A stretch of DNA of 64,000 nt from NCBI GenBank assembly GCA_964016885.1, contig OZ024741.1:85808001-85872000 (forward strand). Direction: 5' to 3'. Origin of the DNA: Eledone cirrhosa. Lineage: Eukaryota. Each line of letters opens with the position of its first letter. The stretch's first letter is position 1. The notes under the pieces were generated by a model, which ran no database searches, was not told the origin of the DNA, and was given only the letters and a program-made list of their open reading frames with translations. Shown piece after piece: positions 16,871 to 58,519 of this stretch. The translations under genes were made by a program, and so were the position numbers.

Positions 16871-16911
16871 TACTTAATGTTTCGGGCGCGCTAGTCCTTC
16901 ATCAGAAGGTA
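16871..16911 (-). ncRNA. Degenerate minimal hammerhead-like motif
   Basis: Minus strand tacctt-CTGATGA-aggactagcgcgccc-GAAA-cattaagta; helices imperfect. Confidence 0.45.
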
Positions 16912-17826
16912 GAAGGATAAAATAAAGAAGAAATACATTTCTTAATGTATTTTATGGGGGGGGGGGGCTACGGTACTTACAGAATTTTACGTTGGTCACT
17001 AAATCTAAGAGATCCGTTTCTAAATCCGCTAAATCCTTAACTTTAGGTGGATACTTAGTTGACTTGAAGTTGGATCTTTCAGTGGTGGATATTTTCGCGT
17101 CAAAAAGTAGAGCCTTCCATCTCAATATCCTTACTATATCCTCCACTTTCTCAAGAACCATTTTGGAGTAGAAGTTTGTTTGTTTGTGTTCTTGGTGGAG
17201 TAATTTAGCTCGTATATGTCCATTATGCTGTTGTGATTAGAATCATTAAGTCTGAAGGCATGAAATACTGCGAATCATGCGCTGCATAAGAAAACGACGA
17301 GAAAGATTTCAGAAAATACAAGGTATGTTTTTGATAACATTGTATTTGAATGTGTTGTGTTAGGTCGTTTGTAATTATGTGAGAAATGAATGGAAGTTGT
17401 AAATTTACAAAGTTTCATTGTAATTGAAAAACCTGGCCTTGCCAGTACGATCTGACTGACAAGGCCAGTGAGTGGAGAATGAGAGCTGTATGCCTGTGGG
17501 GAGGATAACCACAGGCTTCGGCTTTATTGAAGGTGTTTATTGACTGGGTCATCCTATCAACAAAGGAAAACCTTTATCCATTGTTTAATCCGCTAAGGTT
17601 TTAGGTCAGTATGTTGATTGGGTCATAACCTTGAAAACAATGGAAAATTCTTTTATATACACCCTTATTATGAACTACGCTATGTTAGTGCTACAGATAT
17701 ATATGTGTGTGTCTGTGTGCGCGCGTGTGTGTGTGCACGCTACTCTCTGATACTGCAGTATTGAACTGGCTATAAGGACATTTAAGCAATGTCCTATGCT
17801 GAGTAAAAAAGAAACACCTGGAAAAA

Positions 17827-17971
17827 GTTCAAATCTCGCCGAGGTTAGCTTTGCCTTTCATCCTTACGGGGTCGATAAAATAAAGCACCAGTAATGTGCT
17901 GAGGTCGATTTAATCGACTTTCCCCTCCCTTTCAAATTGTTGGCCTTGTGCCTAAAGTAGAAACAATTATT
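17827..17971 (+). mobile_element. SINE, same family (Deu/Nin-like central domain)
   Basis: GTTCAAATC...GAGGTTAGCTTTGCCTTTCATCCTTACGGGGTCGATAAAATAAAG...GGCCTTGTGCCTAAAGTAGAAACAATT. Confidence 0.85.
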
Positions 17972-18992
17972 AGCACAGATAAAAGTTTAAGCAAACAATT
18001 TGTGCTATCAGCCTTAAATTTGTTTGCTTAAACTTTTAATCTGCGCTAATAATTTGTTCTACGGGTTTATATATGAAGTCGTAGCTACGACTTCAGTATA
18101 TATATATACACGTCAGTGTTGGACTAGCTATAAGGACATTTAAGCAATGTCCAGTCTGTCACTGGGCTGGGTAAAAAAAAATATAAAAAGCTGGAAAAAT
18201 CTTACGAAAAACTGAAGTCGTAGCTACTAAAATTTGAACGAAAAGGGAACCGCCTTAGTTTAAGAATGAAAACACACCTTTGGGCCTTCAGCGGTTAGCT
18301 CTTTGTTAGTCCGTATTGCTTTAGCTAAGCAGTGGAAACATGCCTCTAGTCTTCAGCAACCCGTTAGTCAGTATTTTTCGGATGTCCGGGCTGTTTTAAG
18401 ATCCAGGCCACTTTTGGATTTACTCTTCAAAATAAGCAGCAATCACCAAGTATTGTACTTCATGCACGGGACAACATAAAGCTGGCTAAAGAAAGCCTTT
18501 ATCAAGTTGTTTGACAAGTTATATTTTATGTCGTCTGTCAAATATGTTATGTTGGCTGATAACTATGTTTTATTTATGGTTCAAAGCCTGCTCTTTTTCC
18601 CTTTAAGTCAACGTTTTCGACATTCTGCTGAATCTTCTTTGTATAGATTCTCTCTGCGAGAGGCAGTGTGACCCTTTCGAACCTTATGTCTAATGCAATA
18701 CACACTATTTCAATTAACTAGTGAAGAATTGTGAAGCATTTACTAAAATTGTTGATTATTTAATTACTAAGATAACAACTTAACATGGTTTTATATAAAA
18801 TTATATTAGAAGATTTAAATTTAAATAAGAACTCTTTAGTGGCTTTGTTTCATAGAACCAGGGACGCTTTTAATCGGGTTATTTTATGTAGGCAACATGT
18901 AACAGCCACCTTCGGGATTTTGTGAAGCCTGGATGAAGTTTTTGAAATTTATGAGTTGTATTTGTCAGGTGACTTGATCTAAGACTGAGTAT

Positions 18993-19190
18993 GTTGAAAC
19001 TGAAGCAAATACAGTATAGAAAAATCATTTTAGCTACAGTTGTACTTATCTAGCAAGTGACATTTGAAACTAAAGCAATCACAACGTGGAGGTGTCATTT
19101 TAGTCACAGTTGTATTTGTCTAGCAAATAACTTTTAAGACTAAAGCGGAAGAGTTATTTTAGTCACAGTTGTACTTGTCTGGCAAGTGAA
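18993..19190. repeat. ~60-70 bp degenerate tandem repeat, 3 copies
   Basis: Recurring ATTTTAG(TC/CT)ACAGTTGTA(C/T)TT(G/A)TCT(A/G)GCAA. Confidence 0.8.
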
Positions 19191-19714
19191 TTCATATGAG
19201 ATCATGTGTATTGAAACTAGAGAATTACGCCATAGTTGTTTTAGTAATTAGAAAAACACACACACAAAGATTGAGTGAGTTGCAATGATAATGTATATTT
19301 TATATTTGTCTGTCAACTATGTATTATCTTCGCAAACATCTATATGTGTATGTTGACTTTCCATTGACATAAACATAATTTGAGATTTCTCCATTTTATT
19401 ATTTTATTGATGTTGTTATTGCTTTTGTTGCTGTTCTTGTTATTGTTTAGTCTATTTTCTATTTCTTGTTATTCTTTTACTGTTTTCAGTCATTAGACTG
19501 CGGTGAAGCAGGTCACCACCTTCGAGAAATTTATTTAATCGTGCCACCGACCCAATACATATTTTATTTATATCCCTTTGTTAAACTACTAAATTTCAGG
19601 TCATAAACAGTAAAGAGGTGTCTTTTTCGCTTTATACTTTACCTAGGTTGTTTTTATTTTTATTTTTATTGTTTTTCTTTTTTCTTCTTAGACGCTTACT
19701 TGTGTAATAACATA

Positions 19715-19915
19715 ATTGTTTAGGCACAAAGCCAACAATTTCGGGGGAGGAGAAAGTCGATTATTCGACTCCAGTGTATTACTGGTATTTTATTTTATCG
19801 ACCTCGTAAGGATGAAAGGCAAAGCTAAGGTCGGCGGGATTTGAACTCAGAACGTAAAGGGTCATAACTCTATGCCGCTAAGCATGTCAGACGCTCTACC
19901 GATTCTGGTAATCCG
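19715..19915 (-). mobile_element. SINE with tRNA-like head
   Basis: Reverse B box (GGGATTTGAACTC) and A-box region (CTCTACCGATTCTGG). Confidence 0.85.
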
Positions 19916-20196
19916 GGACCAATTGACTTATGTAAACAATTCTGTTTCCTGGTGAGATTCTGAGAGATGTTTGTATCCCATCATCGATATAATTAATTAA
20001 GTGGCTAATAATTTTGGTCGTTTGGAATCGTATCTCTCTTAATCAAAACGTTCGTTGATATAAATGATTTAACTGAGTAAAGCTTTTGGTTACTTCTGAA
20101 ATAAAGTCTTAATGAGTTATTAACGTGAATAACACTTCGAGCTTTAACACACCTTCATAAAATACAAGTGAATATATCCACTTTCAATTGTTTTAC

Positions 20197-20236
<40 letters not shown>

Positions 20237-20334
20237 GAGGTTATATTTAATTTGTTGGGATTCAACAAGCTTAAACATTTTTATAACTGATATAAAGCAC
20301 TCAACAAGTTAGTGGAGTAAATATACAATATATT

Positions 20335-20515
20335 AATTGTTTCTACTTTAGGCACAAGGCCAGCAATTACCCAGTGCATTGCTGGTACTTTATTTTATCG
20401 ACCCCGTAAGGATGAAAGGCAAAGTCAACCTCGGCGGGATTTGAACTCAGATCGTAAAGGGACGTAACTATGCTGGAAAGCATGGCATCCGACACTCTAC
20501 CGATACTGCCAATCC
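20335..20515 (-). mobile_element. SINE, young short subfamily
   Basis: Near-identical to 30140-30305 and to both arms of 52595-52882. Confidence 0.88.
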
Positions 20516-20761
20516 AATGGAAACTATATTTATAAAACCATATTTATTTTATTATATATATTTCAAGGGCAACCAAGGCAAATTATGGTGTGCTTTCATC
20601 AGATAAAATACAGATTTGTTTAATAAATAAATATTGACATACTCGGAAAAAAGACAACCTTAACTGTTGGAGCTTCCTGGATAGTGGAGATATTTTATTG
20701 AGGGCAATACAAAGTTATGAGTGAGTATGCAAATGAGTGTCCGAAAAGTTGAAAAGATAAC

Positions 20762-20831
<70 letters not shown>

Positions 20832-21610
20832 CAAACATATATGTATTTGTGTGTGTGTGTGTGTGCGTGTGTGTGTGTAAACATATGTATTTGTGTGTGT
20901 GTGTGTAAACATATGTATTTGTGTGTGTAAACATATATGTATTTGTGTGTGTGTGTAAACATATATGTATTTGTATAGATGTGTGTGTGTGTATATATGT
21001 ATAGATATATGTGTGTGTGTGACAAAAGAGCTTTAATGACAACGAAACAACCAACTGGTTATTAAACTAAACGACTAGGAAAATATTTTAAATGGAAGTG
21101 AAAGGTGTGTGTGTGTTTTATTGGCAGAATGAACCTCCCAAAGTATAACAATGTATATGTGTGTGTATGTATGTATGTATGTATGTATATAGATAGATAG
21201 ATAGATAGATATATACATAATATGTACATAGCAGGGGCGAAGGGTCCGTGCATGCGTTATAGAATCTTGAGTTGATCAATTACGTCGGTTGAAGCAAGCA
21301 GAATTTTGGCTGCTTACTAAATCGTAGACACAAAAAAAATAACACACACACACACACACACACACGCAAACACACGACAGCTTTGGGGCAAGCAGAATTT
21401 TGACTGCTTACTAAATCGTAGACATAAAAAGATAACACACTCACACACATTAGATAACACTACATGCGGCTTTGAGCGGGAAGGTCATTTAGAGGGGGGG
21501 GTAAGGCTGCACAGCCCCACTTTCCGCCATGGCGATTGGACTGCGTGCCCTGCTTTCCACGTTACCCTTTGCCATTGATATATATATATATACATTTATG
21601 TATGTATATA

Positions 21611-21941
21611 TGTAACGAAGGGTATTAGTGGTGGTTGTTAGATGAAATAAACAATGATAGCTGATTTACTTTATATATAAAAAGGTTGACTTCACTTCAG
21701 TCAAAAAGAACAATAAACAAGTTACCACGAGTCGCAAAGGTTGACGATGTATTTTTTGTTGTAGTTTGAGACCAGGAGAGAAAGACGTGGGGTTATATAG
21801 GCTTTATATACCTGTCGCTTTCTATCTCGCACCTTGAGGGATCGCCCACGCATGAACCTGTCCACACCGAAAAGGATGGTGACCTAGAATTTGACTCTTA
21901 GGTGCCACCCAGGGTTCAAGGCGTGGACAGATTTCGCTACA
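21611..21941. mobile_element. Probable solo LTR
   Basis: Termini TGTAACGAA...TTCGCTACA, 331 bp, flanked by TATA/TATA (TSD ambiguous inside a TA tract). Confidence 0.7.
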
Positions 21942-21949
21942 TATATATG

Positions 21950-22007
<58 letters not shown>

Positions 22008-22041
22008 GTATAATAAACATTCGTTCGTCGGACAAGGTAAT

Positions 22042-22119
22042 ATTACCTTGTCCGACGAACGAATGAGGACGTTTTTTTCGTATTCGTCTTATTCGGGAAA
22101 CCTCTGGTAATGAGGTAAT
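22042..22119 (+). ncRNA. Type I hammerhead ribozyme candidate, U4C core
   Basis: Helix I ATTACCTTGT/ATGAGGTAAT; core CCGACGA; stem II CGAATGA-GACG/CGTC-TTATTCG; GAAA; stem III ACC-tct-GGT; cleavage triplet GTA. Confidence 0.7.
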
Positions 22120-22923
22120 TATATTGTATTGTTTATTATACATTAAATTTTGCTCTGGTACTTACATAGAGCACTCTTCACTCCTATGACTTTTTCAATT
22201 TTCAACGGAAACTTCAATACTTATATATATATATATAGTTAAATAAGATAACAAGGACGATTTGTTACTCCTTCATTACGTTTATTGGCTGGTGACGCGC
22301 GACACTGAAGTGAACCTACAGTAACTCCAAGTTACACTCCCTGGATATATGTATATGTATGTATATATATATATATATAGAGAGAGAGAGATAATTTAAT
22401 ATATCTACTAACATAAGCGCACAGATGTACGCTAATGCCAGCAAATACACAGGTTATGTCATAGTACCTAGGTGGTTCAATGCAGGAGGATGCAGAACAA
22501 TAATATAAAAGACGTAAAATAAGAAAAATTTAAAAAAAAAAAATTTTTTTTTAAATTAACTTACTTACTTAAATTTTCACTCCAACTAATTAGTTTCTGC
22601 AATGGGATAAAGACAGTTACGTAATGAACTGTTGAGAATTTCATTGCGTCATCAGGGAGGTCATTCTCAGCTAACCATGGCAGGATTTGGACTCAGAACA
22701 TAAAGGGACGTAACTATATGTCACATATCATGGTGTCTGATGCCCTACTGATACTGCCAATCCACTGCTCTAGACTGGAATAAATAATGCCATAGAGTTT
22801 TTGAATAGTCTCCACAAGAACATAAATATGATTCAACCTATTTGTGATAAAATATAGTTTCGAGGAAACTATATTGGATAACTAAGAAAGTCTTTATTAA
22901 CCTTATTCTGTATCTGCTACATT

Positions 22924-23130
22924 TTAACCCTTAGGCATTTATATTATTCTATATATACTGTTGTATTTTCATGGTAAAGGTTTTATCTCACATAATATTC
23001 AATCTATGAGATTTTGATATCATTTATTTTGAGAACAATACCTTAACATCTGTATAAGTGGTCAGTTACAGCTGGTTTGTACAGAGAGCGGTGAGAGAAT
23101 TCTGGTCAGATAATGGGGGATTAAACTTTG
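22924..23130. mobile_element. Degenerate piggyBac-like MITE
   Basis: Starts TTAACCCTT; interior homologous to 43951-44236. Confidence 0.6.
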
Positions 23131-23689
23131 ATAGCATATCTTTAAATTTTACCCATTTCTGAGGGTGGTAGGATTGGCAGAATTGGTTGAGCATTGGATA
23201 AAATATCATGGCAGTATTTCTTCTGGATTTTCACATTCTGAGTTAAAATCCAAGCAAGGTCAACTTTGACTTTCATCCTTTAAGGGCCGATAGAATAGAG
23301 TACCAGTAAAGTATTGAGGTTAATTTAATCAACTTTGCCCTTCCCTAAAATTTGCTGACCACATGCTTAAATTAGAAATGAATATTTTTCCAACATTTGA
23401 CTAATTACATTTTAGCTGAATTTGATTTGGGATGTAATCTATATCAATCTTGCAAGCATAGTGAATTCATTTATTATTTTTCATACATTCATTACGGGGT
23501 CGATAAAATAAAGTACCAGTAATGCACTGGTAATTGCTGGCCTTGTGCCTAACGTAGAAACAATTATTTTTCATACATGCATTTGTTCTCATATAATAAA
23601 TATATAAAACTAAATAGAAATACATACATATAATCAATTAATTGTTTATGATATATATTGTTTATTTAAAATTGCTATATGGTTGGTGT

Positions 23690-26785: not shown

Positions 26786-26821
26786 ATTTATTTATTTATT
26801 TATTTGTATCTCCCCAGATAA

Positions 26822-27086
26822 ATGTTGTGCGTAAAGATTTTTCGGAGGCCACAAACGCTTCTGTACATAGTGTTTGGGATCTCTATAGGTGTGACACTGT
26901 CGATGCTCAGTAATTCAATGAATGGTTTCTCATGGAGTAAGCTGGCTCTACAGAACTACAACTTCAGAATCGGCCACAACCACCATCATCCCATGCACTT
27001 TGACCTCCGGGATGCTGCTGCTGTTGCTGATTCTATAAATATTGATGAGCAGCATGAGCCACATGACGACTCACATGTACATCACG
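26822..27086 (+). CDS. C1GALT1: C1GALT1-like T-synthase, coding exon 1 (cytoplasmic tail, TM anchor, His-rich stem)
   Basis: Acceptor CAG at 26815-26817, ATG 26822, TM segment LLYIVFGISIGVTLSML. Donor G|GTGAGT after 27086 (phase 1) joins exon 2 as G|AT = Asp. Confidence 0.8.
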
Positions 27087-27154
27087 GTGAGTTTTGTTTG
27101 TTGTTGTTGATTTTGTTGCTCCTTTTATTGCTTAAGTTCTCCTACCCTCTAGAC

Positions 27155-27670
27155 TAGTGGCCGCCAACCTCTCCGACTTCACGGACCACTAAATTCATAA
27201 TTTTAAATCCTGCGGATCACTAATAAGAATTTTTTTAAAAAGATAAATACATTTTTAAAATAATGAGCAGAGAACTTCCATTTTATTAATATGAAATGCA
27301 CCTATTAACTATATCAAAATTATAAATACCTATGTAATCAAAATGTTTAAAGGCTTGTTTAATTGTAACATTATTAAAGTTAGTTTATTACAAGATAATT
27401 AAAGCTTATTTAATTATTATACATTTTTAGTGTGATATTTGTGTATGTTTGAAATAAGTTCATGAATTTTTGGCTCCAATGACGTAAAATTCTTTCGTAG
27501 ATGTTAGTTCTTTACTGAGGGGAAACATTTTTTAGGGGTGTTATAAAATATATTTTAAACAAATATTATTGTTGTTTTATTATTAATAAAACATAAAAAT
27601 TGCAAATAATGTCCAAATTTTTCTGCGGACCACCAAAATTTTCTCTCGGACCACTGGTTGGTGACCACTG
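27155..27670 (-). mobile_element. hAT/Charlie-type non-autonomous element
   Basis: TIRs (T/C)AGTGG(C/T)C(G/A)CCAACC; 8-bp TSD CTCTAGAC/TTCTAGAC; minus-strand remnant SLEPKIHELIS..QISH* of a transposase C-terminus. Confidence 0.85.
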
Positions 27671-27678
27671 TTCTAGAC

Positions 27679-29293: not shown

Positions 29294-29330
<37 letters not shown>

Positions 29331-29486
29331 ATATATATATATATTTTGAGTATATGTTGGGTGTTTACCGACACCTCAGTATGCAGATTGGAGCACTCGA
29401 CGAAGTGCGCAGGTTGGTTTGGTTACTTCGGAGTAATGTAAAATAAAATAAATAAGTCAAATATTTAAAATTTGGCTTTGTTTATT

Positions 29487-29541
29487 ACTGCTATATATAT
29501 TTCAGTGACAGCCATCTTTGGCTGTGACCTCTTCAGGCAGT
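29487..29541 (-). ncRNA. Type I hammerhead ribozyme candidate, canonical core
   Basis: Minus strand ACTGC-CTGAAGA-GGTcACAGCCA-aaga-TGGCTGTcACT-GAAA-tatata-TA-GCAGT followed by AATAAA; perfect 5-bp helix I, palindromic stem III, triplet ATA. Confidence 0.75.
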
Positions 29542-30139
29542 CCGAATTAGTGTGGTAGAGACGAGTACACCTGTTGTTGAGGTGTTTAACTTCGTCAATA
29601 CTCTGATGTGCCCAGTTCCTGGTTGGGTTGTTATTTCTCTGAGGAACTGGAATCATATGAATTCAAACAAACGAATTTCAGCAGCGTCAAAGAACATCCT
29701 CTCCCCCCATTGGTCAGTTGTGAGAACATTCCTCAGTCAAAAGTCTATAGAGATTCTTTCTGAGGCGAGGCAATCTGTAGTGGTTGTTTTTGTTATTGTT
29801 AAGTACATCTGACCTCTTCCCTTATGTTGGTAGTGGTGTTGGTGCTGGGGTCAGCTTAAGTCCGGCTGCTGCTGATTTTAGAAGGATCTGTGTGTGTATG
29901 CTGGCATCTATCCTGCCACCATTTCTCGTGGTGGTGGGGGGTGGGGGTTGTGCCAAGCATATGAAGAAATAAGATACAGTAAACACAACAGACAATAAAA
30001 TGAAGAAAATAGAATAAAAAATTAAAAAATGAAGAGAACAATAAAATGAAATGAAAAGGTAAAAGACTAAAAAATAAGAATAAAATAAAGAAATAAAAAA
30101 GTAAAGTAGAGTAAAATAAAATAAAATAAGATAAAATAA

Positions 30140-30305
30140 AATAATTGTTTCTACTTTAGGCACAAGGCCAGCAATTACCCAGTGCATTACTGGTACTTTA
30201 TTTTATCGACCCCGTAAGGATGAAAGGCAAAGTCAACCTCAGCGGGATTTGAACTCAGATCGTAAAGGGACGTAACTATGCTGGAAAGCATGGCGTCCGA
30301 CCCTC
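30140..30305 (-). mobile_element. SINE, young short subfamily
   Basis: Near-identical to 20335-20515. Confidence 0.88.
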
Positions 30306-31532
30306 TAAAAATAATATAAGCCAATAAATAAACAAAAAAATGATAAAATGGTAGAAGGAATAAGATGATAAAAGAATAAAATAAGATAATCAAATAAAAT
30401 GTGTGTGTGTTATAACCAATCTCAAAGTTAGAAATCTCACGAAGTGAGCACCTGCAAGTAGCCAACTCTGTGCTGATGATGGTGAGCAGGAAGGTGGTCC
30501 TAGGGCCAAAGACACCAGAAGGCTGCCAAAATATGTTTGTATCCTGTCATCAGATTTGCACAAAGCTCTCTGAAAGACATCTTCCAATGGCCTAACTCAT
30601 TAGAAGACACTCTTTCTTTTTTATAGGTGTACTTCATAAATTACAGGTGTTTTACTACCTTGTCACAGTGGCCAATAGCTAAGAGAAGAAAGCACATTTT
30701 CTTTTGTTTTTTTGTCACTACTAATGTTATTTTTTTTTTATATGTTACTCTAATAATTTCGTTTTTATGTTAGTTATATATATAATAAAGAAAATTGTTA
30801 GGAAAGGAAAGAAAAGAAATTAGTTTCTGTCCATTGTATAATGTAAAGTACCTATTAAGGTAAAACAGTATCTTAATGTTTACAATAGGCTGGGTGTTGC
30901 TAGGCTGAATGGTTATTTATTAAACAAAACCCATATTAATTTACCTCATGTTTACTTCATTCAGCAATCTTTGAAAAGAGATATGTAATAATATATTATC
31001 TTCTAAGTTAAAATACAAATAAACACTACTTATGAGTATATATCAATGTGTGTGTGTTTTATATATATAGAGGGAGAAAACATATATATGTGTGTGAATA
31101 GTTTACTTGAGTTCAAGTCCGGCAGTCCAGATGAATGCGTGCCACAGCTTTCTGGTACAAGAAGGGGGAGCAGGAGGACTGGAGGGATGACGGGACAGAA
31201 GGAGGGAGGACCGGTGGTTGAGGGAGGTGCCGTAGTCGGTTGTCAGAGTCGACATCTTGTCCCGGTCGTCTTCTCCATCTTCGTCTGGTGTTGCGGGACC
31301 AGAAGTGCATTCTTGGAGGAGACCTGCAGCTGCATCGGCCAATTCTTCTTGTAATGGTCATTCTGACGGAGCAGAACTGCTCAGCCAACCAACCCCAACC
31401 AGAACCAACCGCTCAGGGGCAACACACAATGAGAGCATGACAATTATTATGCACTAATCAAGAAGATACTGGGGCATAGCACAGGAAACGAATAAAAAAA
31501 TGTTGCCACTAATATTATTGTAAAATTTTTTA

Positions 31533-33757: not shown

Positions 33758-34339
33758 TTGTCACCCGGTATTTGCAGGGGTTATATATGACGTTAAGGTA
33801 TTGTTCACAAAATAAATAATATCAAAAATCTCATACATTCGATATTATATGAGATAAAGTGTTAAATATGTATTTTCTTTGATAGCTTCCTAGTTAACCA
33901 AAGGCTTGTGAATGAAATTTTGTAGACAGAAACTGTTGGAATAACTGTAGTAGTTATTGTGCAGTAGACTTAATCCATATCACATGATTTAACACCACCA
34001 CTTCACCATTAATACTGTATGTGACAAGGCTGGACTTTTGAATTGCAGGTAGAGTCCCTCTCTTGTATTATATTGTAAGTGGTTGATTATTCCACAGACA
34101 CGTGTACCCTTAATGTAATTCTTAGCTGGAATCAGTGTGGCACAGTATGTGATATGGCTGGACCTTTGAATTATGTGGTATACATTTAAAGCATTATGGA
34201 CATCATGGATGTATTTCTAACTCGTATTATACTGGTTTATAGTTTATTTGTTTGTTTAATAGTGTTTTTATTTACCTTTCTAATCAATTATTGTTGTTTC
34301 TTTTATCATTTTTTTTATTCCTCTTTCAATGGCAACCAG

Positions 34340-34995
34340 ATGACTACACCTTGGCTGATATGTTGAAGAAAAAGGTTCGTGTTTTGTGCTGGATTATGAC
34401 TGCACCAAAGACATTATACACAAAAGCCTTACATGTAAAACATACATGGGCCAGAAGATGTAACAAAATACTTTACATGAGTTCAACGTCTGACCCCAAA
34501 TTTCCCACCATTGGTCTAAATATTTCTGAAGGGAGGGAACACTTAACAGCAAAAACTATGAAGGCATTCCACTATATTTACAAAAACCACTTCAACGATG
34601 CTGACTGGTTCATGAAAGCAGACGATGACACGTACGTCATAGTGGAAAACCTTCGCTATTTTCTCTCCACTAAAAACCCTAATGAACCCATCTACTTCGG
34701 TCACCATTTTAAAACCATAGTGAAAGGGGGTTATCACAGTGGTGGTGCCGGTTATGTACTTAGCAAAGAAGCTCTGCGCCGTTTTGCCTTGCATGGAAAT
34801 TCCAATATATGTCGTGAGGACGGAGGTGCTGAAGATGCAGAAATTGGTAGCTGTTTAATGAAGTTAAACGTCACAGCTGGAAAATCTGTTGATAACCTGG
34901 GAAGATCCCGATTCCATTGTTTCGATCCAGGTACACATCTACATGGAGGTTACCCAGATTGGTTTTACCAATATGATTCAAATGGGGCTCGATCC
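34340..34995 (+). CDS. C1GALT1: C1GALT1-like T-synthase, coding exon 2 (GT31 catalytic domain)
   Basis: KVRVLCWIMT, TWARRCNK, DADWFMKADDDTYV, PIYFG, SGGAGYVLSKEAL, AEDAEIG; acceptor CAG 34337-34339, donor GTAAGT at 34996 (phase 0). Confidence 0.97.
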
Positions 34996-35063
34996 GTAAG
35001 TACCTTTTTTTACTCTCTTACTAGTTTAAGTCATTAGACTGCAGTCACACTGGGGCACCACAT

Positions 35064-37807: not shown

Positions 37808-37845
<38 letters not shown>

Positions 37846-37850
<5 letters not shown>

Positions 37851-38315
37851 TGCATATACAGTGTATTTTGCAATACACTGTATACTTAATTAAAAGCATT
37901 TCGAAGACCTTACGCTATTGTTTTAAAGTAGTGACAGTCTCACTTACTTTAAATTTTCAGCAAACAGGGGAGATAAAGCTGACAGAGCTCTGTTTCGTAC
38001 TCCACCTGTTTGCTGAAAATCATGAATGTTTGATTCTTATAGAATTCTAGTAATAATCTGTATAATCAGTTCCTGATCATTACTAGAATTCTATAAGAAT
38101 CAAACATTCATGATTTTCAGCAAACAAGTGGAGTACTTGGCTTTGATAAGTACCAATCAGTACGAAACAGAGCTCTGTTAGCTTTATCTCCCCTGTTTAG
38201 TGAAAATTTAAAGTAAGTGAGACTGTCACTACTCTAAAACAATAGCGTAAGGTCTTCGAAATGCTTTTAATTAAGCATACAGTGTATTGCAAAATACACT
38301 ATATATGCATTCATA
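37846..38315. repeat. ~215 bp-arm inverted repeat (foldback), spacer ~16 bp
   Basis: 37846-38058 is the reverse complement of 38075-38315 with a few mismatches; the right arm has 27 extra bp. Confidence 0.95.
38139..38183 (+). ncRNA. Type I hammerhead ribozyme candidate, U3-A8 covariant core
   Basis: GGCT-TTGATAA-GTAC-caatca-GTAC-GAAA-CAGAGCTCTG-TT-AGCT; palindromic stem III; triplet GTT here, GTC in the inverted arm. Confidence 0.72.
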
Positions 38316-38346
38316 TATATATCGCTATTTCAGAGCACCAATTCTA

Positions 38347-38401
<55 letters not shown>

Positions 38402-39433: not shown

Positions 39434-39600
39434 AGTACATTACTGGTACTTTATTTTATCGACCCTGTAAGGATGAAAGCAAAGTTAACCTCAAATCCCG
39501 CCGAGGTTAACTTTGCCTTTCATCCTTACGGGGTCGATAAAATAAAGTACCAGTAATGTACTGGGCAATTGCTGGCATTGTGCCAAAAGTAGAAACAATT
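39434..39600 (+). mobile_element. SINE with inverted 5' duplication and 15-bp TSD
   Basis: TTAATAAATAAAAGT at 39422-39436 and 39599-39613; 39434-39492 is the reverse complement of 39503-39562. Confidence 0.8.
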
Positions 39601-40669: not shown

Positions 40670-40804
40670 GGAATCCACAATATCAGTGACTATGCTATCA
40701 CATTCCATTATGTCTCACCAAAGTTGATGCATGCCTTAGAATTTTATGTCTATCATTTACGACCATTTGGTATAGTGTCTGGAGTTCAAAATTTGAATGT
40801 CTGA
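40670..40804 (+). CDS. C1GALT1: C1GALT1-like T-synthase, last coding exon
   Basis: Acceptor TTGCAG|G; GIHNISDYAITFHYVSP...LEFYVYHLRPFG...NLNV*. Spliced CDS 265+656+135 = 1056 nt, open. Confidence 0.95.
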   Translation, partial: GIHNISDYAITFHYVSPKLMHALEFYVYHLRPFGIVSGVQNLNV

Positions 40805-46549: not shown

Positions 46550-46865
46550 TAAGTCAAAGATTACATTCGAGGTTGTCGGGTTTGTAGGTTTGGGCAACTT
46601 TAAAAATATCCCAGTAGAGGGAGTAACCCATATTAGAATTTTTAACTCCCATATGAAATGGGCAAGCAAGTTTTTTAATTTTTCTTTTTTAAAGGAATGG
46701 AGAAGCATGTAGTAGTAAGACTTAAAGCTATTTAAAGTTGCTCCAATATATACTTTAGTGCAACGAGGTGTGGAAACAGCGCATTGATACACTATTTGAT
46801 CTGAATAACACATCAAGCTACAATGCACCTTGTTAAAACACGAGTGGATTTATCCACTTACAATT
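46550..46865 (-). mobile_element. Penelope-like GIY-YIG endonuclease remnant
   Basis: IVYQCAV...KVYIGAT..SFK...HSF...LAHFIWELK in ORF 46373..46828. Confidence 0.8.
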
Positions 46866-47217: not shown

Positions 47218-47419
47218 TACAAATTTAAGGTATGATAACATATCAATTATGTAGGATATTTGTGCTTCTCAATATAGTCTTTTCTCACTTAAATTTAATA
47301 TATAATATTGCTTCTCTGAGTGATTCCACTCATTGAGATTATATACTAATTAACCTTTAATTAATATTGAACTGCACCTTAATTTGTTGAGTTGAACCAG
47401 TGATTTATGAAATACTGTC

Positions 47420-48758: not shown

Positions 48759-50488
48759 ATGACATCAAATAAGAAGAAAGTACGCCAATATAGCGACGAT
48801 TATTTGAAATTCTGTTTCACTGAGGCACCTCATGATTCTCGATTGTCTATGTGTCTTCTCTGTCATCAAACACTGAGCAATGACTCCATAAGGCCTGGGT
48901 GACTCTGACAACACTTCAATGCGAAGCATGGAGACAAGTCATCAAAGCTGCTTTCATACTTCCAAGATCTTCAAAAGAAAGTTTGCTGCCAGTCTACACT
49001 ATCTCAATGTTTTTCTAAAGTAGCCGAAAAGCAGGATAAATCATTAATAGCAAGCTACGAACTTTCAAAATTGTGGAAAACCCCATACGATAGGTGAGCA
49101 GTTAATTAAACCAGCCATTCCTGTGTTTTTACAAACTGTTATAAATCACATAGACGAATCAGTGGTCCAGCTTATGTCGCTCATCAATGACATAGTACGG
49201 GGACGAATTGATGAGATTTTCATTGATGTGGAACAGCAGCTTCACAAATATATTCGAGAAAGTCTTTTTTCACTTCAGCTCGATGAGTCAACCTTTTTGT
49301 GGAAGCCGGTCTGTACTTCTGGCATGTCCAAGACGATGATGCTTTTCGAGAGGAAATGCTTTTTTGTCGTACTTTTGAAACTACGACAGCTTCCGATATA
49401 TACGACCTTGTGATGTCGCATTTATCAGAAAACAAGATTCCTATTACATCCGTTCCATCCTGTGCAGCAGACGGCGCGCCCGCAATGGATTCCTTAAACG
49501 ACTTAAAGATGATAACCTATTGATTTTGACAGTACACTGCATCCTTCATTGGGAAAACTTGGCTTCCAGATGTCTTTCACCAGAATTACAAGAAGTAATG
49601 CATGCTATTGTGTCGTGCGTAAATTTAATCAAGGCGAATCACAAGACTGGTCATCTTTTTCAGAAATATTGCAAGGACATCGACAAATAACATGTCAATC
49701 TTATCCTACGTACTGACATAAGATGGTTGTCAAAAGGAAATTGTTTTGCCCGCTTTTTCGTATTATTCGATGAAGTTATGAAGTTTATACCTGAGAGTTT
49801 CTACACGAATATCCTTCAAAGAGCTGACGGAAAATTATTGGTCGCTTATTTGGCTGACATGCTACAAAAACTCAATTTATTGAACAAGGAATTGCAGGGG
49901 GACAAGGTGACTATGATCGTGGCGAAAACCAAAATATTAGCCTTTATCGATAAGGTTTATTTGAACCACCTCTGTGGGTTGCTCTGAAAACTTGCCACAT
50001 CTATCTACCTACGGACCAGTTCCATCAGAGGTATCAAGCACCTTATGCGCTTATTTGCTTGCTTTGGAGAAGGAGTTAACTCTAGATTTAATGACCTCCG
50101 TCAAATGTCTTTCCCCGAATGGCTTTCGCAACCGTTTCTCACACATCTTTCTGATGTTGATCCATGCCTACAGGATGAACTGGCTGAGTTTTTAAAAAAT
50201 GATGATTTAGCTCAAAATCTTTACAAGCACAAAGCAACCATGAGATGGCTTGATAATCATTTGAACACCCAGTATCCTATTTTGTGCACAACAGATGTAA
50301 AGTTCTTTCTTCCCTTTTCAACTACATACTTGGTTGAGAGTGATTTCAGCGTAGCCAACGATCTCTTAACGAAAAAGAGAAACCGCTTTGAAATTGAAAA
50401 TCGCGGAGATTTGCATATGCGGTTAACAAAACTAAATCCGGATATAGCCAAGCTTGCATTCAGGTATCAAAGTCAACCGTCGCATTAA
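48759..50488 (+). pseudogene. hAT Buster/Charlie-type transposase fossil
   Basis: RQYSDDYLKF..CLLC...H BED finger, FSLQLDEST, ADGAPAM, HCILH, RWLSKG, LPFSTTYLVES.FS, KKRNR, QPSH*; many stops and frameshifts. Right TIR-like AAAAGGTTGAGAACC at ~50918-50932. Confidence 0.92.
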
Positions 50489-50967: not shown

Positions 50968-51754
50968 CGAGGTGTGTCAGAAAAGAAACAGGACTGGGGT
51001 CACAAAAATAATATTTCAAATCCAAACTACAAATTACAAGTTTTCCCATTCGAAATAATCCAACTCTAACGCACTTTCCCATCCTTCCCCGCAGCTTTGT
51101 CGTCATGGCTTCCACATCCGGAAAACGAGTTCCCATGACTCTCCCCAGCAAGTCTGGTTCGGTTTCAAGACGCTAGAGGATGCCCTGACACACCTGCATG
51201 CACCTCTTCTTCTGGTCATCGCCCAGTAGCTTCAGCACCATTTTCGCGCAGATTTTCCATATGCCCATATCTTCGCTGCTAATCTGCCAAACGCTGTCGC
51301 AGTTCATGCCCAGCTCACTTGCTATCGGTCGAACAGTCAACTGACGATTGCCACATATCACCTGCCTCAAGCGCTTACTGCTGGCCTCATTCATGCTCGC
51401 CAAAGGGCTTCCGCTCCTGGGGTCGTCTACCACGTCTTCGCGCCCCTTTTTGAACTTTGTGCGCCACTCCAAAACCAGTAAGCGTGACATCGTCTCATCT
51501 CCGTACACATGTTGCAGTATCCTGAGTGCTTCTGACGGAGTTTTCCCCAGCCGGACCAGAAACTTCAGTTTGGTTCGTTGCTCTGTGCCCATCGGTCGAC
51601 GGCCTAAAATCGATGAGTTAAGAAAAGCACGTGAAAAAACATACAATGGCTGCAGAAAGTCGAGATCGCAGTTATATATTCCCCAGTGATAATCCTTACC
51701 CCATTCATAGGTCACACAACACACTTAGTCCTGTTACTTTTCTGACACACCTGG
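50968..51754 (-). mobile_element. Internally deleted mariner
   Basis: 28-bp TIRs CGAGGTGTGTCAGAAAAGAAACAGGACT / AGTCCTGTTACTTTTCTGACACACCTGG with TA TSDs. The ORF keeps only the HTH half (EQR..KF.V.LGK...VYG...GRE.V.DDPRSG); no catalytic domain. Confidence 0.93.
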
Positions 51755-52400
51755 TATGTCTCACTGACTTTTCTTTTTATGCTGGGCGCTGTGTAGACCT
51801 CCGACGTCCATGGTCTCCTGACTGCTGTTTTCCTCTGCAAAATTGGGAGTGGGGCATCGCACCTGAAGATGATGTCCCGTGAAATGGAATGACTAATACA
51901 GCTCTAGATTGTTGACTTGTTTCAATCCTTGTTTCTGGCTGTGTATTCTATTTAACAAACAACTTCTGACAAGAATATATCACGAAAGTGAAAGAATATA
52001 AATATTATTACATAGAAAATCAGTTCTCAGTGAATATATTTAGACAATCAAAGTATCAAAGCATTAACCCGCTTGATACCAAACTGACTGATACTACCTC
52101 TCGTTCTACAATACAAAACTATTCATTTAAAAGTATTTATCATGATCATCGTCATCGCTCTATGCATAATATATGTATATATATATGTATGTGTGTGTGT
52201 ATGTATATGCGCTAGTGTCTTTTTACAGCAACTGAAATTGTCTCCCTTAGACATATTAGGAAAAAGCACCAAACTGTGCAACCCTTAAACATATCTCCTC
52301 GTATTTTCGCCTGTGTAGTTTTTATATGAAATAGATTCTGAGTGCAATAGACATGTGGTGATTCCAACAAAACATTCCCTATGTATGTTTATGTATATAT

Positions 52401-52445
<45 letters not shown>

Positions 52446-52594
52446 TGTGTGTGTGTAGAGAGAGAGAGAGCGAGGGGAGGGAGAGAGATGTACACACACA
52501 TATATATATAAGGGTCGTATATGTGCACACGTGTGTGAGTGTGTGGCAAATAAATTTTCTTACAAGACTATCATCCGATTAAATGTATGATTGT

Positions 52595-52882
52595 TGCCAT
52601 GCTTTCCAGCATAGTTACGTCCCTTTACGATCTGAGTTCAAATCCCGCCGAGGTTGACTTTGCCTTTCATCCTTACGGCGTCGATAAAATAAAGTACCAG
52701 TAATGCACTGAGTAATTGCTTGCCTTGTGCCTAAAGTAGAAACAGTTAATAATTGTTTCTACTTTAGGCACAAGGCCAGCAACTACCCAGTACATTACTG
52801 GTACTTTATTTTATCGACCCCGTAAGGATGAAAGGCAAAGTTAACCTCGGCGGGATTTGAACTCAGACTGTAAAGGGACGTA
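52595..52882. mobile_element. Two SINEs tail-to-tail
   Basis: + copy 52595-52748 abuts - copy 52749-52882. Confidence 0.9.
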
Positions 52883-53208
52883 GAAACAGGTAATAATACC
52901 ATATTGAAATTGCAATGGGGTTTATTTATTTATACATTTTTCAATATATTTGTGCAAAAATATCACCTTCTAGGATGATATCCCATGGATAATGATATCA
53001 CATCAATAATGATATTTTCATTGGTACAGATTTCTCATGATAATTATCTATCTATCAATCACTCTCTCTCTCTCTCTCTCTCGCTCTCTCTCTCTCTCTC
53101 CTTATCTATCTCTCTCTCATATATACACACACACACACACATATATATATATGTGTGTGTATGTGTAAAAAGAAAGAGAGGATTTATAAGTGTGTAATAT
53201 ATATGCAC

Positions 53209-53248
<40 letters not shown>

Positions 53249-54749
53249 TTATATATGTGTATAGCTATATAAATACACACATATATGTGCATGTATATAT
53301 AGATATAGATATATTATTTGTGTGTGTGCGTGTGTGTGTGTGTAATCACAGTCCTCGATTTCTCATTACGTCGGTAACGGTAGTTATCGCCTTCTCAGTA
53401 ATTGAGTGAGATGATGGGAAAATATTTTCATATTTGTTGATTTTTTGTCTATTTATTACAGCTGTTGTTGCTCCTGGTGTTGTTTTTGTTGTTGTTACTT
53501 CTACTGTTGTTGCTGCTATTTTTATGGTTGCGGTTATCATAAATGAAACGTTAGAAGCCATGACAAGTTCCAGTCATAATATATAACACTTCTGTTCATC
53601 ATTCATTAATTTTATTGCTATAATAGGACATTACCTATAATTCTCATATATCTTCATCATCATCATTAAACGTCCGCATTCCCTGCTGGAAAGAGTTGGG
53701 TGGGTAGTCACAGACCAAGCCAGTACCCATGCAGCGCTACTGAACTCTCTGATGGGCTGGGGGTTTCCATCTCACTTGTTTACATTCTCACATTTCACCA
53801 GTTTTTCAGGCTGGCTGGCTGGTGTCCCACATCTCACAAAACGTTTCCATGCTCGAACGAGTCCATTTTATCATGTCACCAGCAATAGAGAGGTTGTCAT
53901 GTCTTTGATACAGCTGAAGAGCCTTCCAAACCTTTTGTTTGGTGGGGTTTTCTACAGTTGGATAACCTCATTATCACTAACCACTTTACAGAGTGTACTG
54001 GATGAGTTTATCCTGTAAATCACCAACACTAGAGAGGTTACTATGTCTTTGACACAACTGAAGAGTTCTCTTGACAGTTTTAGTGGGATACTCTTCCTAT
54101 CGCCAAACACCTTACAACACTGGTGCTAGGGAGGTTTTAGTTATTGACTCAACTAAAGCGCCTTCCCTACTCTATGAAAGGCAGGGCAGGGGTTAAAAAG
54201 GTGATAAGTATATCATAAGTAGTGGAGTGGGGGGATTATTAGAATGTTGAGTAAGATGGAGAGATGGGTGGCCTCTAGCTGCATGGGAAATTACTGAAAT
54301 GAGTAGGGATTTGAGGTGGAGGGTGTATCAGGTGTATTATCGTACGCAGTGTGTTTAGGATTTTAAGGGGTGAGGTAGATCCTGGGTAGGGTTATTAACC
54401 TAAACAGAATGTGGGTGTTAGGATGTGGAATCTTCCGGTAGTGTGGGAGTTATTGCGATGACAGTTATAGCTAGTATGTTTGGATTTTATGGTGATCCTT
54501 GGTTGAGTGATGAGCCTTAGTTGAGTGAAGGATTTAAGGAATGGTGGAGAGTAAATGATGAAACTGGATTGAGTTGAGGGTGTTGGGATTTAATAGGTGG
54601 CAGTGTTCCTGGACGAAGTGGGGATGGGGTGTACAATGATGTTGAGGATAGCGACTAAGGAGTTATAGTGGACGAGTGGAAAATGAAAGGGCTGGGAAAT
54701 AGCTACTAAGGAGTAATAGTAGAAGGGAGGTATGTGAATGAACCAGGTC

Positions 54750-55400
54750 ACCTTTTATACTGATGAACAGGTCTTCATCAGTAGAGCATGTTGTCACTCC
54801 TCGCACTCCTTTGTTATCTCTGACGTGAGGTCAGTCCTTACTCCCTCATCCCATGTCTTCCACAAGTCCCATCCACTGAGATTTCTCTGTCATTTTCTAT
54901 ACACATACCAACACAGTCTTCTTTCTTGCACACTACATCCAATTTCTCTTATGCCAAGTTTTTCTCTCAACTCGCGTATGCTACATTGTTCAAGCAGACA
55001 GACATTACATATCCATTGGAGCACACTTGCTTCAATTCTTTTTAACTTTCACAGGTCCTCTACAGTCACGGTACATGCAGCATTGCAGTTACAGTCTATC
55101 CTTCACTCTGAGAAAGTAGCTCTTTGTTATCAGCGGGAGTAATAGTTCTTTAAACTTCTTCCATCCTGTTCTTACCCTGGCTACCACACTTTAAAAGCAT
55201 CCTCCCGTACTGTTGATTAGGTCACCTATGTAACAAAAGGTATCAACAGCCTTTAGGGAGCCTTCTTGGCAATTGATCATATCTTTTTCACGTGTACTCT
55301 GAGTGAAAACTCTTCTTGTGAATCTATCACATATAAAATCTATTTTCTCTGTTAGCTTGCCTGTAATCCCACTATATTTATTGTGTGTCATAGGTTACAA
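54750..55400 (-). mobile_element. Degraded RTE/BovB-like LINE fragment
   Basis: SLKAVDTFCYIGDLINSTGGC motif; downstream UTR runs to a (GAT)n tail at ~53655. Confidence 0.75.
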
Positions 55401-55803
55401 TGTGCAATTTTTGAAAAAAGTTACCACTAATTCTTAGGTCTATTGTGGCTTGAAGTGAGTGAGTGAGTGAGTGAGAAGCGACTGGAGTGTTTATCTGGGA
55501 AACTACAATGTAACTGGCTTTCCAAGCATACATCACACAAATTGTCTTTACTAAGTGCGGAGGTGGGGGAGGGACAAAAATGGGGTCCGTATTTATTGGT
55601 TTAGAAACGAGGAGAAGGAAACGATTGCATATCACACTTTTGTAAAGAAGCTAAGCTGTGTTAGTTTAGTTTACAGAGTAACTAAGCTAAGTTCATTTAC
55701 CGGAGAGTAAGAAATAATAATCTTCCAGTTGGTAATATGCCCACAAGGGAAGGGGTAAATAAATATCCATGCTGTTGAAATTATATATATATATATATAT
55801 ATA

Positions 55804-56185
55804 CTAGCAGTGGTACCCGGCGTTGCACGGGATAAGGTATTTTGGAACGCGAGCCGCCAACAGACCTAATCAGGGAAAAACTGCATGCCTGGACAATATG
55901 TAAAGAAAATAAACCGAATACTCTGATGGCTGGATAATCTTTAAGATTTTCCTCGATGAAGCAGGATAAAATGCAAAACACCCCTAAAAAGCTGAAAAAA
56001 CGCAGTTTTTCACCTAATGCCTAGGGTATCAAAAAGTTGAATTTTTTATATGCATAACACACCCTGAAACATAAGTAATACACATGTAAAGTTTGAAAAA
56101 AATTGGTTGGGTACTTCTCGAGTTTTAGGGATTCAAACTCACAGACACACACACAGACAGACATCCTCAGTTTTATATATATAGA
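55804..56185 (-). mobile_element. Non-autonomous Helitron
   Basis: Minus strand begins TCTATATATAT and ends with hairpin CCCGTGCAACGCCGGG then CTAG; inserted between A and T, no TSD. Confidence 0.88.
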
Positions 56186-56579
56186 TGTGTGTGTATGTGT
56201 GTGTGGTTTTGTAACCTATTGTATCACTATAGTATGACATCTAATTTAACCTATTGTATTACTATAGTACGACAAATAACCTATAGTTCTCATATGTAAC
56301 CACTTGTATCACTATATAAAAACAGCCTATGATTTTCATTTATAACTAATTTTATCTTTATATATATATATGTGTGTGTAGGGTAGTGTGTGTGTGGATG
56401 TCTGTGTGAATGTGTATGTACAAATATATATATATATATATATATAGGAAAATATGTAAGATCCTTGGTACAAAAGAACTTACTGGATCTACCAACTCAT
56501 AATATTATAATATTATATTATAACGTTAAATCATAAATTTTTTAACACTACAAGTGAAGTCACTCTTTTCCTTTTTTTT

Positions 56580-56653
<74 letters not shown>

Positions 56654-56654
56654 C

Positions 56655-56693
<39 letters not shown>

Positions 56694-56704
56694 CATATAT
56701 ATAT

Positions 56705-56906
56705 CAGGGGCGGTGGAAGCATTTCTGAATTGGCGAGGCCAAATTTAGACAATTTAGTTGTAGTGATTAGTTTAGTTCTTTACACTCTAAAATAGGCAGA
56801 ACACTTCGATATGCGATAAACATATCCATATAGATGTGTATTTTGGTAGTTTGGACAGAAAATATAATTATTGGAGGGGGACATGCCCTACGTTCCACCG
56901 CCACTG
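56705..56906. mobile_element. TIR MITE
   Basis: CAGGGGCGGTGGAA...TTCCACCGCCACTG; TSD unclear. Confidence 0.75.
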
Positions 56907-57017
56907 TAAATATCTAATTTAAAAATTATGCTCAGTGCCCTCTCCTAAAGGGTTAATATATCGAGCTTCTTCGCATTTGGTAAGAAACTGGTATTATACC
57001 CAATATATTCATCTCGG

Positions 57018-57048
<31 letters not shown>

Positions 57049-57347
57049 ACTTCGGACATTTTTATCGTCCGATTTGTCCAGGTCTGTTTATTAACCTGTT
57101 AGTTCTTTCGTTACTTTGGTATTGTGTGGTTGGATTTTGCCTACCGCAATATTCAATTTGTCAAGGGCCTACCCTTATTGAGTGTTTTGCTAACTCATTC
57201 CTAAGTGTAGGTCGACTTTGCTTGCCACAGCCAAAGCTTCGATTTTACTAAGTTCCCACTTGTGTATATATATATACATTCGTTTATTATGGCTATTGGT
57301 GAGCTTTGTTACTCTAAAGTTTCACCTGCGTACTCAAGAGATCACCT

Positions 57348-57400
57348 GTCTTGTCTGGTGATCCTGTGAGTACGCAGGGGAGACTCCAGAGTAACAAGGC
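57348..57400 (+). ncRNA. Type I hammerhead-like motif, A6G core, in a foldback
   Basis: GTCTTGT-CTGGTGA-T-CCTGTG-agta-CGCAGG-G-GAGA-CTC-ca-GAG-TA-ACAAGGC; the inverted arm retains GAAA. Confidence 0.6.
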
Positions 57401-58519
57401 TTAGCCATAATAAATGAATATTTAAACTCTACTTCGGTATTGAGTTTTCATTCTTACGTCCGTCAACAATTCATGTACTCTCAGGTCTTGAATAATCGTC
57501 CCCACCCCCCGCTTATTAATGTCAGATTTTTTCCACCCACCCCAACCCGGTTTTTATTCCATCCCCATTCCACACCCGCTTATTAAATTTTGCTAATCTA
57601 TCTCCGGCGAAATTTTATTGTAAGTGATTCATATTGATACAGCAGCTGGAGAATCTAATAATTATTTCATTTTACATAAAAAAAAAATGATATATGACAA
57701 TAGAAGAACATTACAAGAAATCCCATATTTACGAACGTACACTATACAATTACTGATTTCCCAAGCCCCCACCCCTACCCTCTATTATTGTCTCCCCTCC
57801 TATTATTTGGGACTCGAGAGTGCCACCGAATTCTCCTGCTCTCTATGGCTATCACACAAAACTCTCTTTTAATCCCCCTCTGTTTTTTTACTAAAACCAA
57901 ACTCTACCCCTCTCTATATCAATTCAAATCAAACTCTCCCCCTCTTTATATCTACTACACGGAACTCTCTTCCAATCCCCCTCTCTATAGCAATAAACAT
58001 CAATCTCTCCTCCTCTCTATATCTAATATACAACACAGTCTCCCAACCCCCTCTCTCTATATCTACCATACAACACTCTCTCTCATTCCCTCTCACTCTA
58101 TCTATCACTACCAAACTCTCCCTCTCTCTATGTCTATCAATACCTATCTCTATCAATCCTCTCTCTCTATTCATTACCACCAAACTCTCCCCCCTCTGTA
58201 CATCACCCATTCAACATACTCTCCGAATTCCCCTCTCTATATCAAGTAACATTAAATTCTCCCCCTCTCTATATCAACCATACGACATACTCTCCGAATC
58301 CCCCTCTCTATATCAATTACCACTTGATATAGACGTGATTTACTTCGCTCCGGATTTTTACGGATTATTGTCAAAAAAACTGTGAGTTTATTGCTCAATT
58401 TAATAACATTGTTTAGTTTAACCCCTTGCCTGGGCCGTCAGACGTTGAGTCAACTAATTTTCGCCCCTTTCTGGGGCGAAATTTTCAATTTTCATCTCAA
58501 AACTGTAGACTTGGTGGCA

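Follow-up and report, generated by a model that had tools for sequence, protein, structure and literature searches.

A 64,000-nucleotide stretch of the Eledone cirrhosa genome (NCBI GenBank assembly GCA_964016885.1, contig OZ024741.1, positions 85,808,001 to 85,872,000 of the forward strand; hereafter the window) carries hammerhead ribozyme motifs at positions 16871, 22042, 29487, 38139 and 57348 (sites 1 to 5). The sequences make it quite probable that these represent five separate type-I hammerhead families, two of which end coding Hydra-clade Penelope-like elements (PLEs) and the rest of which are likely PLE-derived, and that they were placed by a Penelope enzyme nicking (TA)n. The ribozymes of sites 2 and 3 are linked to PLE open reading frames (ORFs), that of site 4 occurs in tandems and shows compensatory changes, and (TA)n is found at the 3′ ends. 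A first-pass annotation of the window had instead grouped the motifs into one non-autonomous retrozyme system, which cannot be upheld, as sites 2 and 3 are the 5′-truncated ends of coding PLEs and retrozyme anatomy is evident in 38139 only.

A hammerhead-shaped motif was recognised by reading and parsing at each of the five coordinates. A descriptor scan of the window returned three strict matches, compared to a mean of 0.175 in 40 dinucleotide shuffles of the window, and eight relaxed matches (shuffle mean: 1.0; maximum: 3), of which five scored 12 or higher (shuffle mean: 0.125; maximum: 1), the relaxed descriptor having been drawn up after the motifs had been seen. This descriptor recovered sites 2 to 5, failed on site 1 and added two matches, 20602(-) and 22655(-). 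A search of the 3.0 Gb genome, which is rich in (TA)n, revealed that all five sites are repeat families, in line with the high copy number originally proposed. The exact family patterns matched 3,554 times for site 1, 580 and 376 times for the forms of site 2 with C and U at core position 4 (C4 and U4), respectively, and 398 times for site 4, while that of site 5 yielded nine matches with GAGA versus two with GAAA; reversed-pattern controls gave no matches for any exact pattern. The first-look candidates, numbering more than 1,100 per site with 40 scored, do not represent copy numbers. Rfam gave 285 matches, and none of the 150 that were listed was a hammerhead family; the output of a repeat finder on the window was dominated by microsatellites.

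The type-I core with three helices is found in sites 3 and 4 and in the site 1 family, and in site 2 with the exception of a U4C substitution. Two of the five cores initially considered variant, CUGAUGA and CUGAAGA, fit the strict CUGANGA consensus, whereas the U3-A8 and U4C families are real variants that a strict search overlooks, as had been anticipated. The GAAA reported for all five motifs does not extend to 57348, which reads GAGA, as do 24/30 family copies.

The site 2 hammerhead (22042-22119) has the U4C core CCGACGA, an A.G mismatch at the base of stem II and a predicted cut after 22109. Its best-matching copies mostly run upstream through a 1.3-kb low-complexity untranslated region (UTR) into a GIY-YIG C-terminus, and in three genomic loci (L152, L244 and L246) two direct ribozymes, spaced 3,686, 3,723 and 3,670 bp apart, respectively, enclose one ORF combining reverse transcriptase (RT) and GIY-YIG domains. 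The L152 ORF, of approximately 712 codons with one in-frame stop, contains the RWK, DKT, CxCX5C, YRDD and CxH motifs, while the CxxC motif reads CxxS in L152 and CxxC in L244. The RWK, DKT, YRDD, CxCX5C and CxH motifs are given as marks of the Hydra clade (PMC8557442), which is further characterised by CxxC and CxH around E and N, and the L152 protein, as judged by eye, resembles Hydra-1_Obim. The further attributes of a Hydra-clade PLE, namely a direct repeat of the pseudo-long terminal repeat type with hammerhead, a tail, an inverted 5′ copy and a (TA)n target, are likewise present. Given this ORF linkage, the window copy therefore comprises the 3′ 110 nt and tail, up to (TA)n, of an autonomous coding Hydra-clade PLE (22042..22233, +), with an inverted copy from which the middle has been deleted lying in front of it and next to (TA)n (22004..22041, -). 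Copies of the family end at two main places approximately 95 nt apart.

Site 3 is located at the end of a 1.1-kb piece (29329..30434, -) that represents the 5′-truncated 3′ UTR of a second Hydra-type PLE. Its hammerhead (29541-29487; predicted cut after 29492) has the canonical core CUGAAGA, which is canonical in 40 of 42 aligned rows, and a palindromic UAUAUA in stem III. At least nine of the 30 loci found by the 5′ end of the piece carry, upstream, a Hydra-type GIY-YIG C-terminus that includes CxCX5C, with CxxC and CxH also observed; in L241 the GIY-YIG is encoded on the strand of the ribozyme, and the RT part of L239 shares 37-39% identity with the site 2 ORF. Site 3 is thus a second truncated coding PLE. 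No inverted copy accompanies it here. The suspected Penelope link was thus borne out by continuity with PLE ORFs for sites 2 and 3, while no such ORF was found for sites 1 and 4 in the loci sampled. The PLE remnants noted previously in the window, an RT (15650-17173) and a GIY-YIG (46640..46843, -), are indeed present.

The site 4 motif occupies a retrozyme-like monomer of approximately 320 nt (38057..38351, +), adjoined by an inverted partial monomer (37838..38058, -) from which the core and stem II, bounded by two GTAC repeats, are missing. The hammerhead (38139-38183; predicted cut after 38179) has a U3-A8 core, UUGAUAA, and a palindromic stem III. This core was found in 37 of 41 rows, among which a few loci overlap, and in all 100 pattern matches listed. 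Direct pairs are spaced 320-322 nt apart, and the 100 listed matches include 14 head-to-head pairs and seven direct pairs at 317-355 nt. The monomer has a GC content of 34%, is strongly self-paired, with fold z-scores of -6.5 (linear) and -7.2 (circular), and has a longest open frame of 71 aa; these features fit the non-LTR retrozymes. A sister lineage in L160 carries ten changes in the 37-nt core-to-cut span of the ribozyme versus 14 in the 273 nt outside it (p: 1e-4), and eight of these ten form four compensatory pairs, a number not reached in any of 500 shuffles, with none in slid controls. Helix covariation had been proposed as a check; such compensatory change was seen for site 4 only, with all four pairs in one lineage, yet L160 constitutes direct sequence evidence for selection on the site 4 fold. 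The U3-A8 core is likely active, and the site 4 RNA likely borrows a PLE enzyme in trans. PLE fragments near site 4 in L003, L006 and L027/L028 were considered as a coding partner and rejected, as they are not continuous with the monomer. A second U3-A8 family, with UUGAAAA, a stem II closed by G-C and a palindromic CCGG, occurs at L215:832-875 and in at least ten other loci; it ends in (TA)n and is sometimes arranged head-to-head.

Three inverted copies lacking part of the ribozyme had been described and were located at 22004-22041, 37838-38058 and in the 57278-57348 arm of site 5. Such loss is not a rule, as the 14 head-to-head pairs of site 4 among the 100 matches listed retain both 29-mers whole.

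The activity of the variant cores can be considered apart from the origin of the families. The U4C core CCGACGA occurs in 37/38 aligned best-match rows of site 2, a biased sample; the exact counts are the 580 C4 and 376 U4 matches given above. A tree of 52 site 2 copies, built with position 4 masked, required five changes of the C4/U4 label, compared to 11.0 for shuffled labels (0/500 as low), and places nine of 12 U4 copies, together with three C4 copies, on one well-supported branch. The clustering of labels on the masked tree thus indicates a real U4 subfamily, of which L246 is a full-length member, while CpG reversion may account for the scattered U4 copies. Being unrooted, the tree does not establish the direction of change between U4 and C4. 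A crude test of whether C4 copies are younger, confounded by the variable loop, revealed no difference (p: 0.51). In a fixed 48-nt segment, divergence is lower among C4 (2.0%; 20 copies) than U4 copies (4.9%; 16 copies; p: 0.037), a weak indication that CpG reversion could also produce.

A second, unrelated CCGA family lies beside (TA)n (L033:1292-1345, L183:2929-2982 and L161:17-95). All three distinct copies, 84-89% alike, read CCGAAGA; their stem II spans 7 bp above a mismatched base, and the palindrome of stem III occurs in two versions. A contig comparison for this family found no other letter at position 4 and was given no weight, as the same approach had failed to reveal the U4 form that is known for site 2. 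We tentatively suggest that U4C may be a working natural core, kept through repeated amplification in two or more unrelated families of Penelope type in this genome, both with a mismatch at the foot of a long stem II; it is likely weakened yet tolerated.

A serious alternative, though one we consider somewhat doubtful, holds that the variant cores are inactive: U4C, and possibly also U3-A8, would be neutral founder mutations carried along in RNAs which the PLE protein inserts uncleaved, with no need of the ribozyme. It concerns only the activity of the cores and is compatible with a PLE origin. The substitution U4C, known from a viroid hammerhead, considerably lowers activity in vitro but still allows infectivity of the viroid (PMC3088659). 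The existence of a sister subfamily with canonical U4 (376 matches) and the multiplication of the broken ribozymes at site 5 also fit dead cores, as does the Anolis PLE, where catalytic mutants left insertion in vitro unaffected and no reads ended at the cut site (PMC11167929). Against this, stems beside the U3-A8 core are kept paired by compensatory change, and the second CCGA family retains CCGA in 3/3 copies while its stem III palindrome changes on both sides. The Anolis ribozyme is described as acting with the help of protein and as dispensable for insertion in vitro (PMC11167929), which makes a tolerance of weak cores plausible.

Should U4C be a working core, genomic hammerheads would tolerate change at a position treated as invariant, probably because the PLE protein or a dimer partner stabilises the fold, and whole active families would escape standard CUGANGA scans. 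A coding family that exists in both C4 and U4 forms with near-complete ORFs would offer a natural test of the open question of whether the ribozyme of PLEs must cleave, as the cleavage rate can thereby be compared with amplification success in matched elements. The U3-A8 retrozyme with its compensating stems shows that selection acts on these RNA folds. Strict descriptors undercount genomic hammerheads, and some variant cores, such as that of site 5, represent frozen damage.

At site 5, the family unit is an entire foldback of two broken hammerheads (57278..57419, both strands) with arms 76% alike, a plus arm with GAGA (57348-57400) and a minus arm (57278-57348). The plus arm reads CTGATGA in 15/30 and CTGGTGA in 5/30 copies, with GAGA in 24/30, while the minus arm has GAAA in 25/27, mostly reads CTGGTGA and has no helix I, the 5′ strand of which is gone. 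An intact GAAA together with helix I was found on neither arm, and in the hairpin, which folds at -85 kcal/mol, both cores would be buried. CUGGUGA can thus be dismissed as the core of this family, occurring in 5/30 plus arms and in none of the nine exact GAGA matches. Locus L170 is an intact solo relative of site 5 and looks like published Hydra hammerheads. A-to-I editing was rejected as the cause of the differences between the arms, as no strand bias was observed (two G.U pairs on the plus, three on the minus).

The foldback is flanked on its left by part of a TA-flanked inverted-repeat element (56706..57035, +), with a left terminal inverted repeat (TIR) at 56706 and an internal right TIR at 56893; the distal right TIR, an inverted repeat of the sequence at 56706, lies approximately 590 bases past the end of the window. 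To the right of the hairpin follow C/T-rich repeats, a long interspersed nuclear element (LINE), more repeats and the inverted-repeat end. The LINE (58320..64000, +) is of the L1/Tx1 type, with APE endonuclease, RT and zf-RVT domains, and L165 retains an intact ORF2 of 1,085 aa. At least 12/30 loci related to the site 5 carrier run into the same LINE, which suggests a target preference. The left TIR-bearing part lies upstream in the same orientation in 21/30 loci, and the left TIR itself was found in 8/30 within short flanks; both TIRs are present approximately 970 bp apart in L089, and TA-flanked TIRs were observed in the window copy and L089. These sequences are most simply read as a PLE foldback that broke and was then multiplied within a TA-flanked DNA transposon as its cargo, likely a dead passenger, in a carrier which is also a LINE target.

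That site 5 is rather a non-autonomous element mobilised by a PLE, with the hairpin by (TA)n as its 3′ end, or that the LINE begins with the hairpin at its 5′ end, appears unlikely. Such explanations would account for the constant position of the hairpin end next to (TA)n in almost all of the 30 loci, for the many copies that continue into the LINE and for the PLE-like inverted end of L075. They are countered by LINE-free copies (L076, L081 and L089) that end in the same right TIR, by C/T-rich repeats flanking the LINE on both sides and by the left TIR-bearing part common to 21/30 loci.

Site 1 is a short insert (16821..16938, -) which interrupts the remnant of an old, broken Hydra-type PLE RT ORF with an RWK motif (15650..17173, -). 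Its motif (16908-16873) has the core CUGAUGA, and the family to which it belongs is minimal as defined in PMC4209133: loop III is lacking, helix I and stem II are each 4 bp long, and an extra A is present. In the window copy, approximately 80-87% alike to its relatives, pairs have been lost, with helix I down to 3 bp and CA replacing CG. The type-I topology attributed to 16871 is therefore recognisable only through the loop-less minimal family, the window copy having failed the scan, and by its sequence site 1 is an old, decayed copy of that family.

The surroundings of the motifs bear on how they were inserted. As initially observed for most of the motifs, (TA)n adjoins those at 22042, 29487, 38139 and 57348, and a (TA) run of at least four units occurs within 270 nt downstream in all 30 loci for each of sites 2, 3 and 4, compared to 35% of random flank windows. 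Inverted partners were found in 20/30 loci for site 4, 13/30 for site 3, 7/30 for site 2 and 1/30 for site 1. We propose that a PLE endonuclease would nick AT-rich or (TA)n DNA and that reverse transcription would begin within the RNA, immediately 3′ of the ribozyme, from either of two closely spaced positions, leaving an optional tail. Such internal starts from two neighbouring positions are described for the Anolis PLE (PMC11167929). From known PLE biology, an early stop would leave the ribozyme-bearing end alone, and a strand switch would add an inverted partial copy and hence give rise to foldbacks. Tandem transcripts would be processed to monomers or circles by the ribozyme, which would often act as a dimer or be assisted by the PLE protein. 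The site 4 RNA would use the PLE protein in trans, while at site 5 an old PLE foldback, both of whose ribozymes broke, would have been multiplied passively inside the TA-flanked DNA transposon.

Several observations weigh against this account. The assignment of sites 2 and 3 to Hydra-clade PLEs is based on motifs rather than a tree, and in Pfam the PLE RT pieces were not recognised and GIY-YIG was matched only below the cut-off (e-value: 0.002). No coding partner was found for site 1 in 30 loci, nor for site 4 in L236-L238 or the first 30 loci. The four compensatory pairs derive from one lineage at one locus, and the (TA)n result for site 4 is partly trivial, the monomer itself containing a TA run. 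The hammerhead fold was never that of lowest energy in the five copies tested (gap: 0.9-4.8 kcal/mol). At site 5, the left part is absent within 1.5 kb in 9/30 loci and the right TIR was found within short flanks in 3/30 loci only.

One diverse, non-autonomous retrozyme-like system with all the listed cores functional and spread via circular RNA, as first proposed, would agree with the multi-copy nature of all five families, with the mostly short, non-coding copies sampled of each and with the retrozyme anatomy of site 4. It is very unlikely, being already contradicted by the continuity of sites 2 and 3 with PLE ORFs; furthermore, two of the cores are canonical, CUGGUGA occurs in 5/30 plus arms and 0/9 exact GAGA matches, and sites 1, 2, 3 and 5 yielded no tandem monomer. 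Chance matches in an AT-rich, repeat-rich window are scarcely credible and already refuted for sites 1 to 4, for although two of the eight relaxed matches (44809 and 58374) are weak and at the shuffle rate and the descriptor does not recover site 1 in the window, there are five high-scoring matches versus 0.125 expected, the exact patterns of the families give between 398 and 3,554 matches compared to none in controls, and a location at the 3′ ends of PLEs agrees with published elements (PMC8557442).

Two additional hammerheads with the canonical core CUGAUGA, which the first-pass annotation had overlooked, were recovered by the descriptor scan. Those at 20545..20610 (-; match at 20602), with a palindromic UAUAUA in stem III, and 22580..22659 (-; match at 22655), also with a palindromic stem III, are multi-copy, each with diverged relatives among 246 loci. 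At least ten further unrelated canonical type-I families, most with a palindromic stem III, were observed in 867 kb of flanks, and the genome likely holds very many hammerhead families. Host glycosyltransferase exons with Fringe/Galactosyl_T domains are located at 26822-27157, 34243-35037 and 40671-40804 (+), and site 3 (antisense) and site 4 (sense) lie within the introns; the encoded enzyme resembles core 1 beta-1,3-galactosyltransferase. Young LINEs with APE and RT frames occur at 1000-4700, 6724-9894 and 10983-14153 (-). The latter two are near-identical, 4,259 bp apart in tandem and inside a long TA-rich microsatellite, and represent either a real tandem or an assembly duplication. Broken DNA transposase remnants (49051-50488, +; 51173-51724, -) are hAT-like by eye and of the mariner-type helix-turn-helix by Pfam. 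Long perfect hairpins at 39434-39562 and 52694-52803 are inverted pieces of a common short repeat, with miRNA-like Rfam scores far below the cut-off.

Much of the system described here is already known, including PLE hammerheads, the U3-A8 core, inverted 5′ copies, (TA)n targeting and octopus Hydra PLEs. The Hydra-clade PLEs, such as Hydra-1_Obim of Octopus bimaculoides (PMC8557442), share with the site 2 family a single ORF with RT and C-terminal GIY-YIG, the RWK, DKT and CxCX5C motifs, insertion at (TA)n, a 3′ hammerhead in which stem III is short and the base of stem II frequently mismatched, as well as partial tandems, inverted 5′ copies and tails. They differ in that every hammerhead row in File S2 of that source has a ctga core, whereas the site 2 family has mostly ccga, and in length, the site 2 unit of approximately 3.7 kb with its 1.3-kb 3′ UTR exceeding the published elements of less than 3 kb. 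Four family motifs from this genome are absent from the supplement of PMC8557442, as far as its contents were available to us. The minimal PLE hammerheads (PMC4209133) resemble the present families in their loop-less or palindromic stem III, the extra base between positions 9 and 10.1 (site 1), the many unrelated families per genome and opposite-strand pairs 100-700 bp apart; U4C is not mentioned in the sections of that source drawn on here. The U3-A8 hammerheads of Schistosoma Cercyon share the core of site 4 but are mostly single motifs (PMC4209133), whereas site 4 forms a tandem monomer of approximately 320 nt and has a 4-bp stem III with a tetraloop. Site 4 is closer to the non-LTR retrozymes, described as low-GC, self-paired, non-coding tandems of 170-400 nt with a type-I hammerhead that coexist with PLEs (PMC7229834; bioRxiv 10.64898/2026.07.22.740005). 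It is distinguished from these by its U3-A8 core and by arrays observed only as dimers or trimers, often head-to-head. Sites 1, 2, 3 and 5 do not fit this group, sites 2 and 3 joining PLE ORFs and site 5 being a single foldback.

The site 5 carrier recalls the Xenopus Tx1 LINE in Tx1D (PMC4494074), likewise a TA-flanked inverted-repeat element with internal repeats and a recurrent APE-RT LINE; unlike Tx1D, it also bears a broken hammerhead foldback. In the published material available to us, U4C was not found in a multi-copy coding PLE family, although surveys of short PLE hammerheads may list it. The U4C viroid hammerhead (cited in PMC3088659) carries the same core change, which in Eledone cirrhosa predominates within a family of genomic retrotransposons. 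A U4C majority core in a coding PLE family, together with a second, unrelated CCGA family, appears to be the previously unreported component of these sequences.

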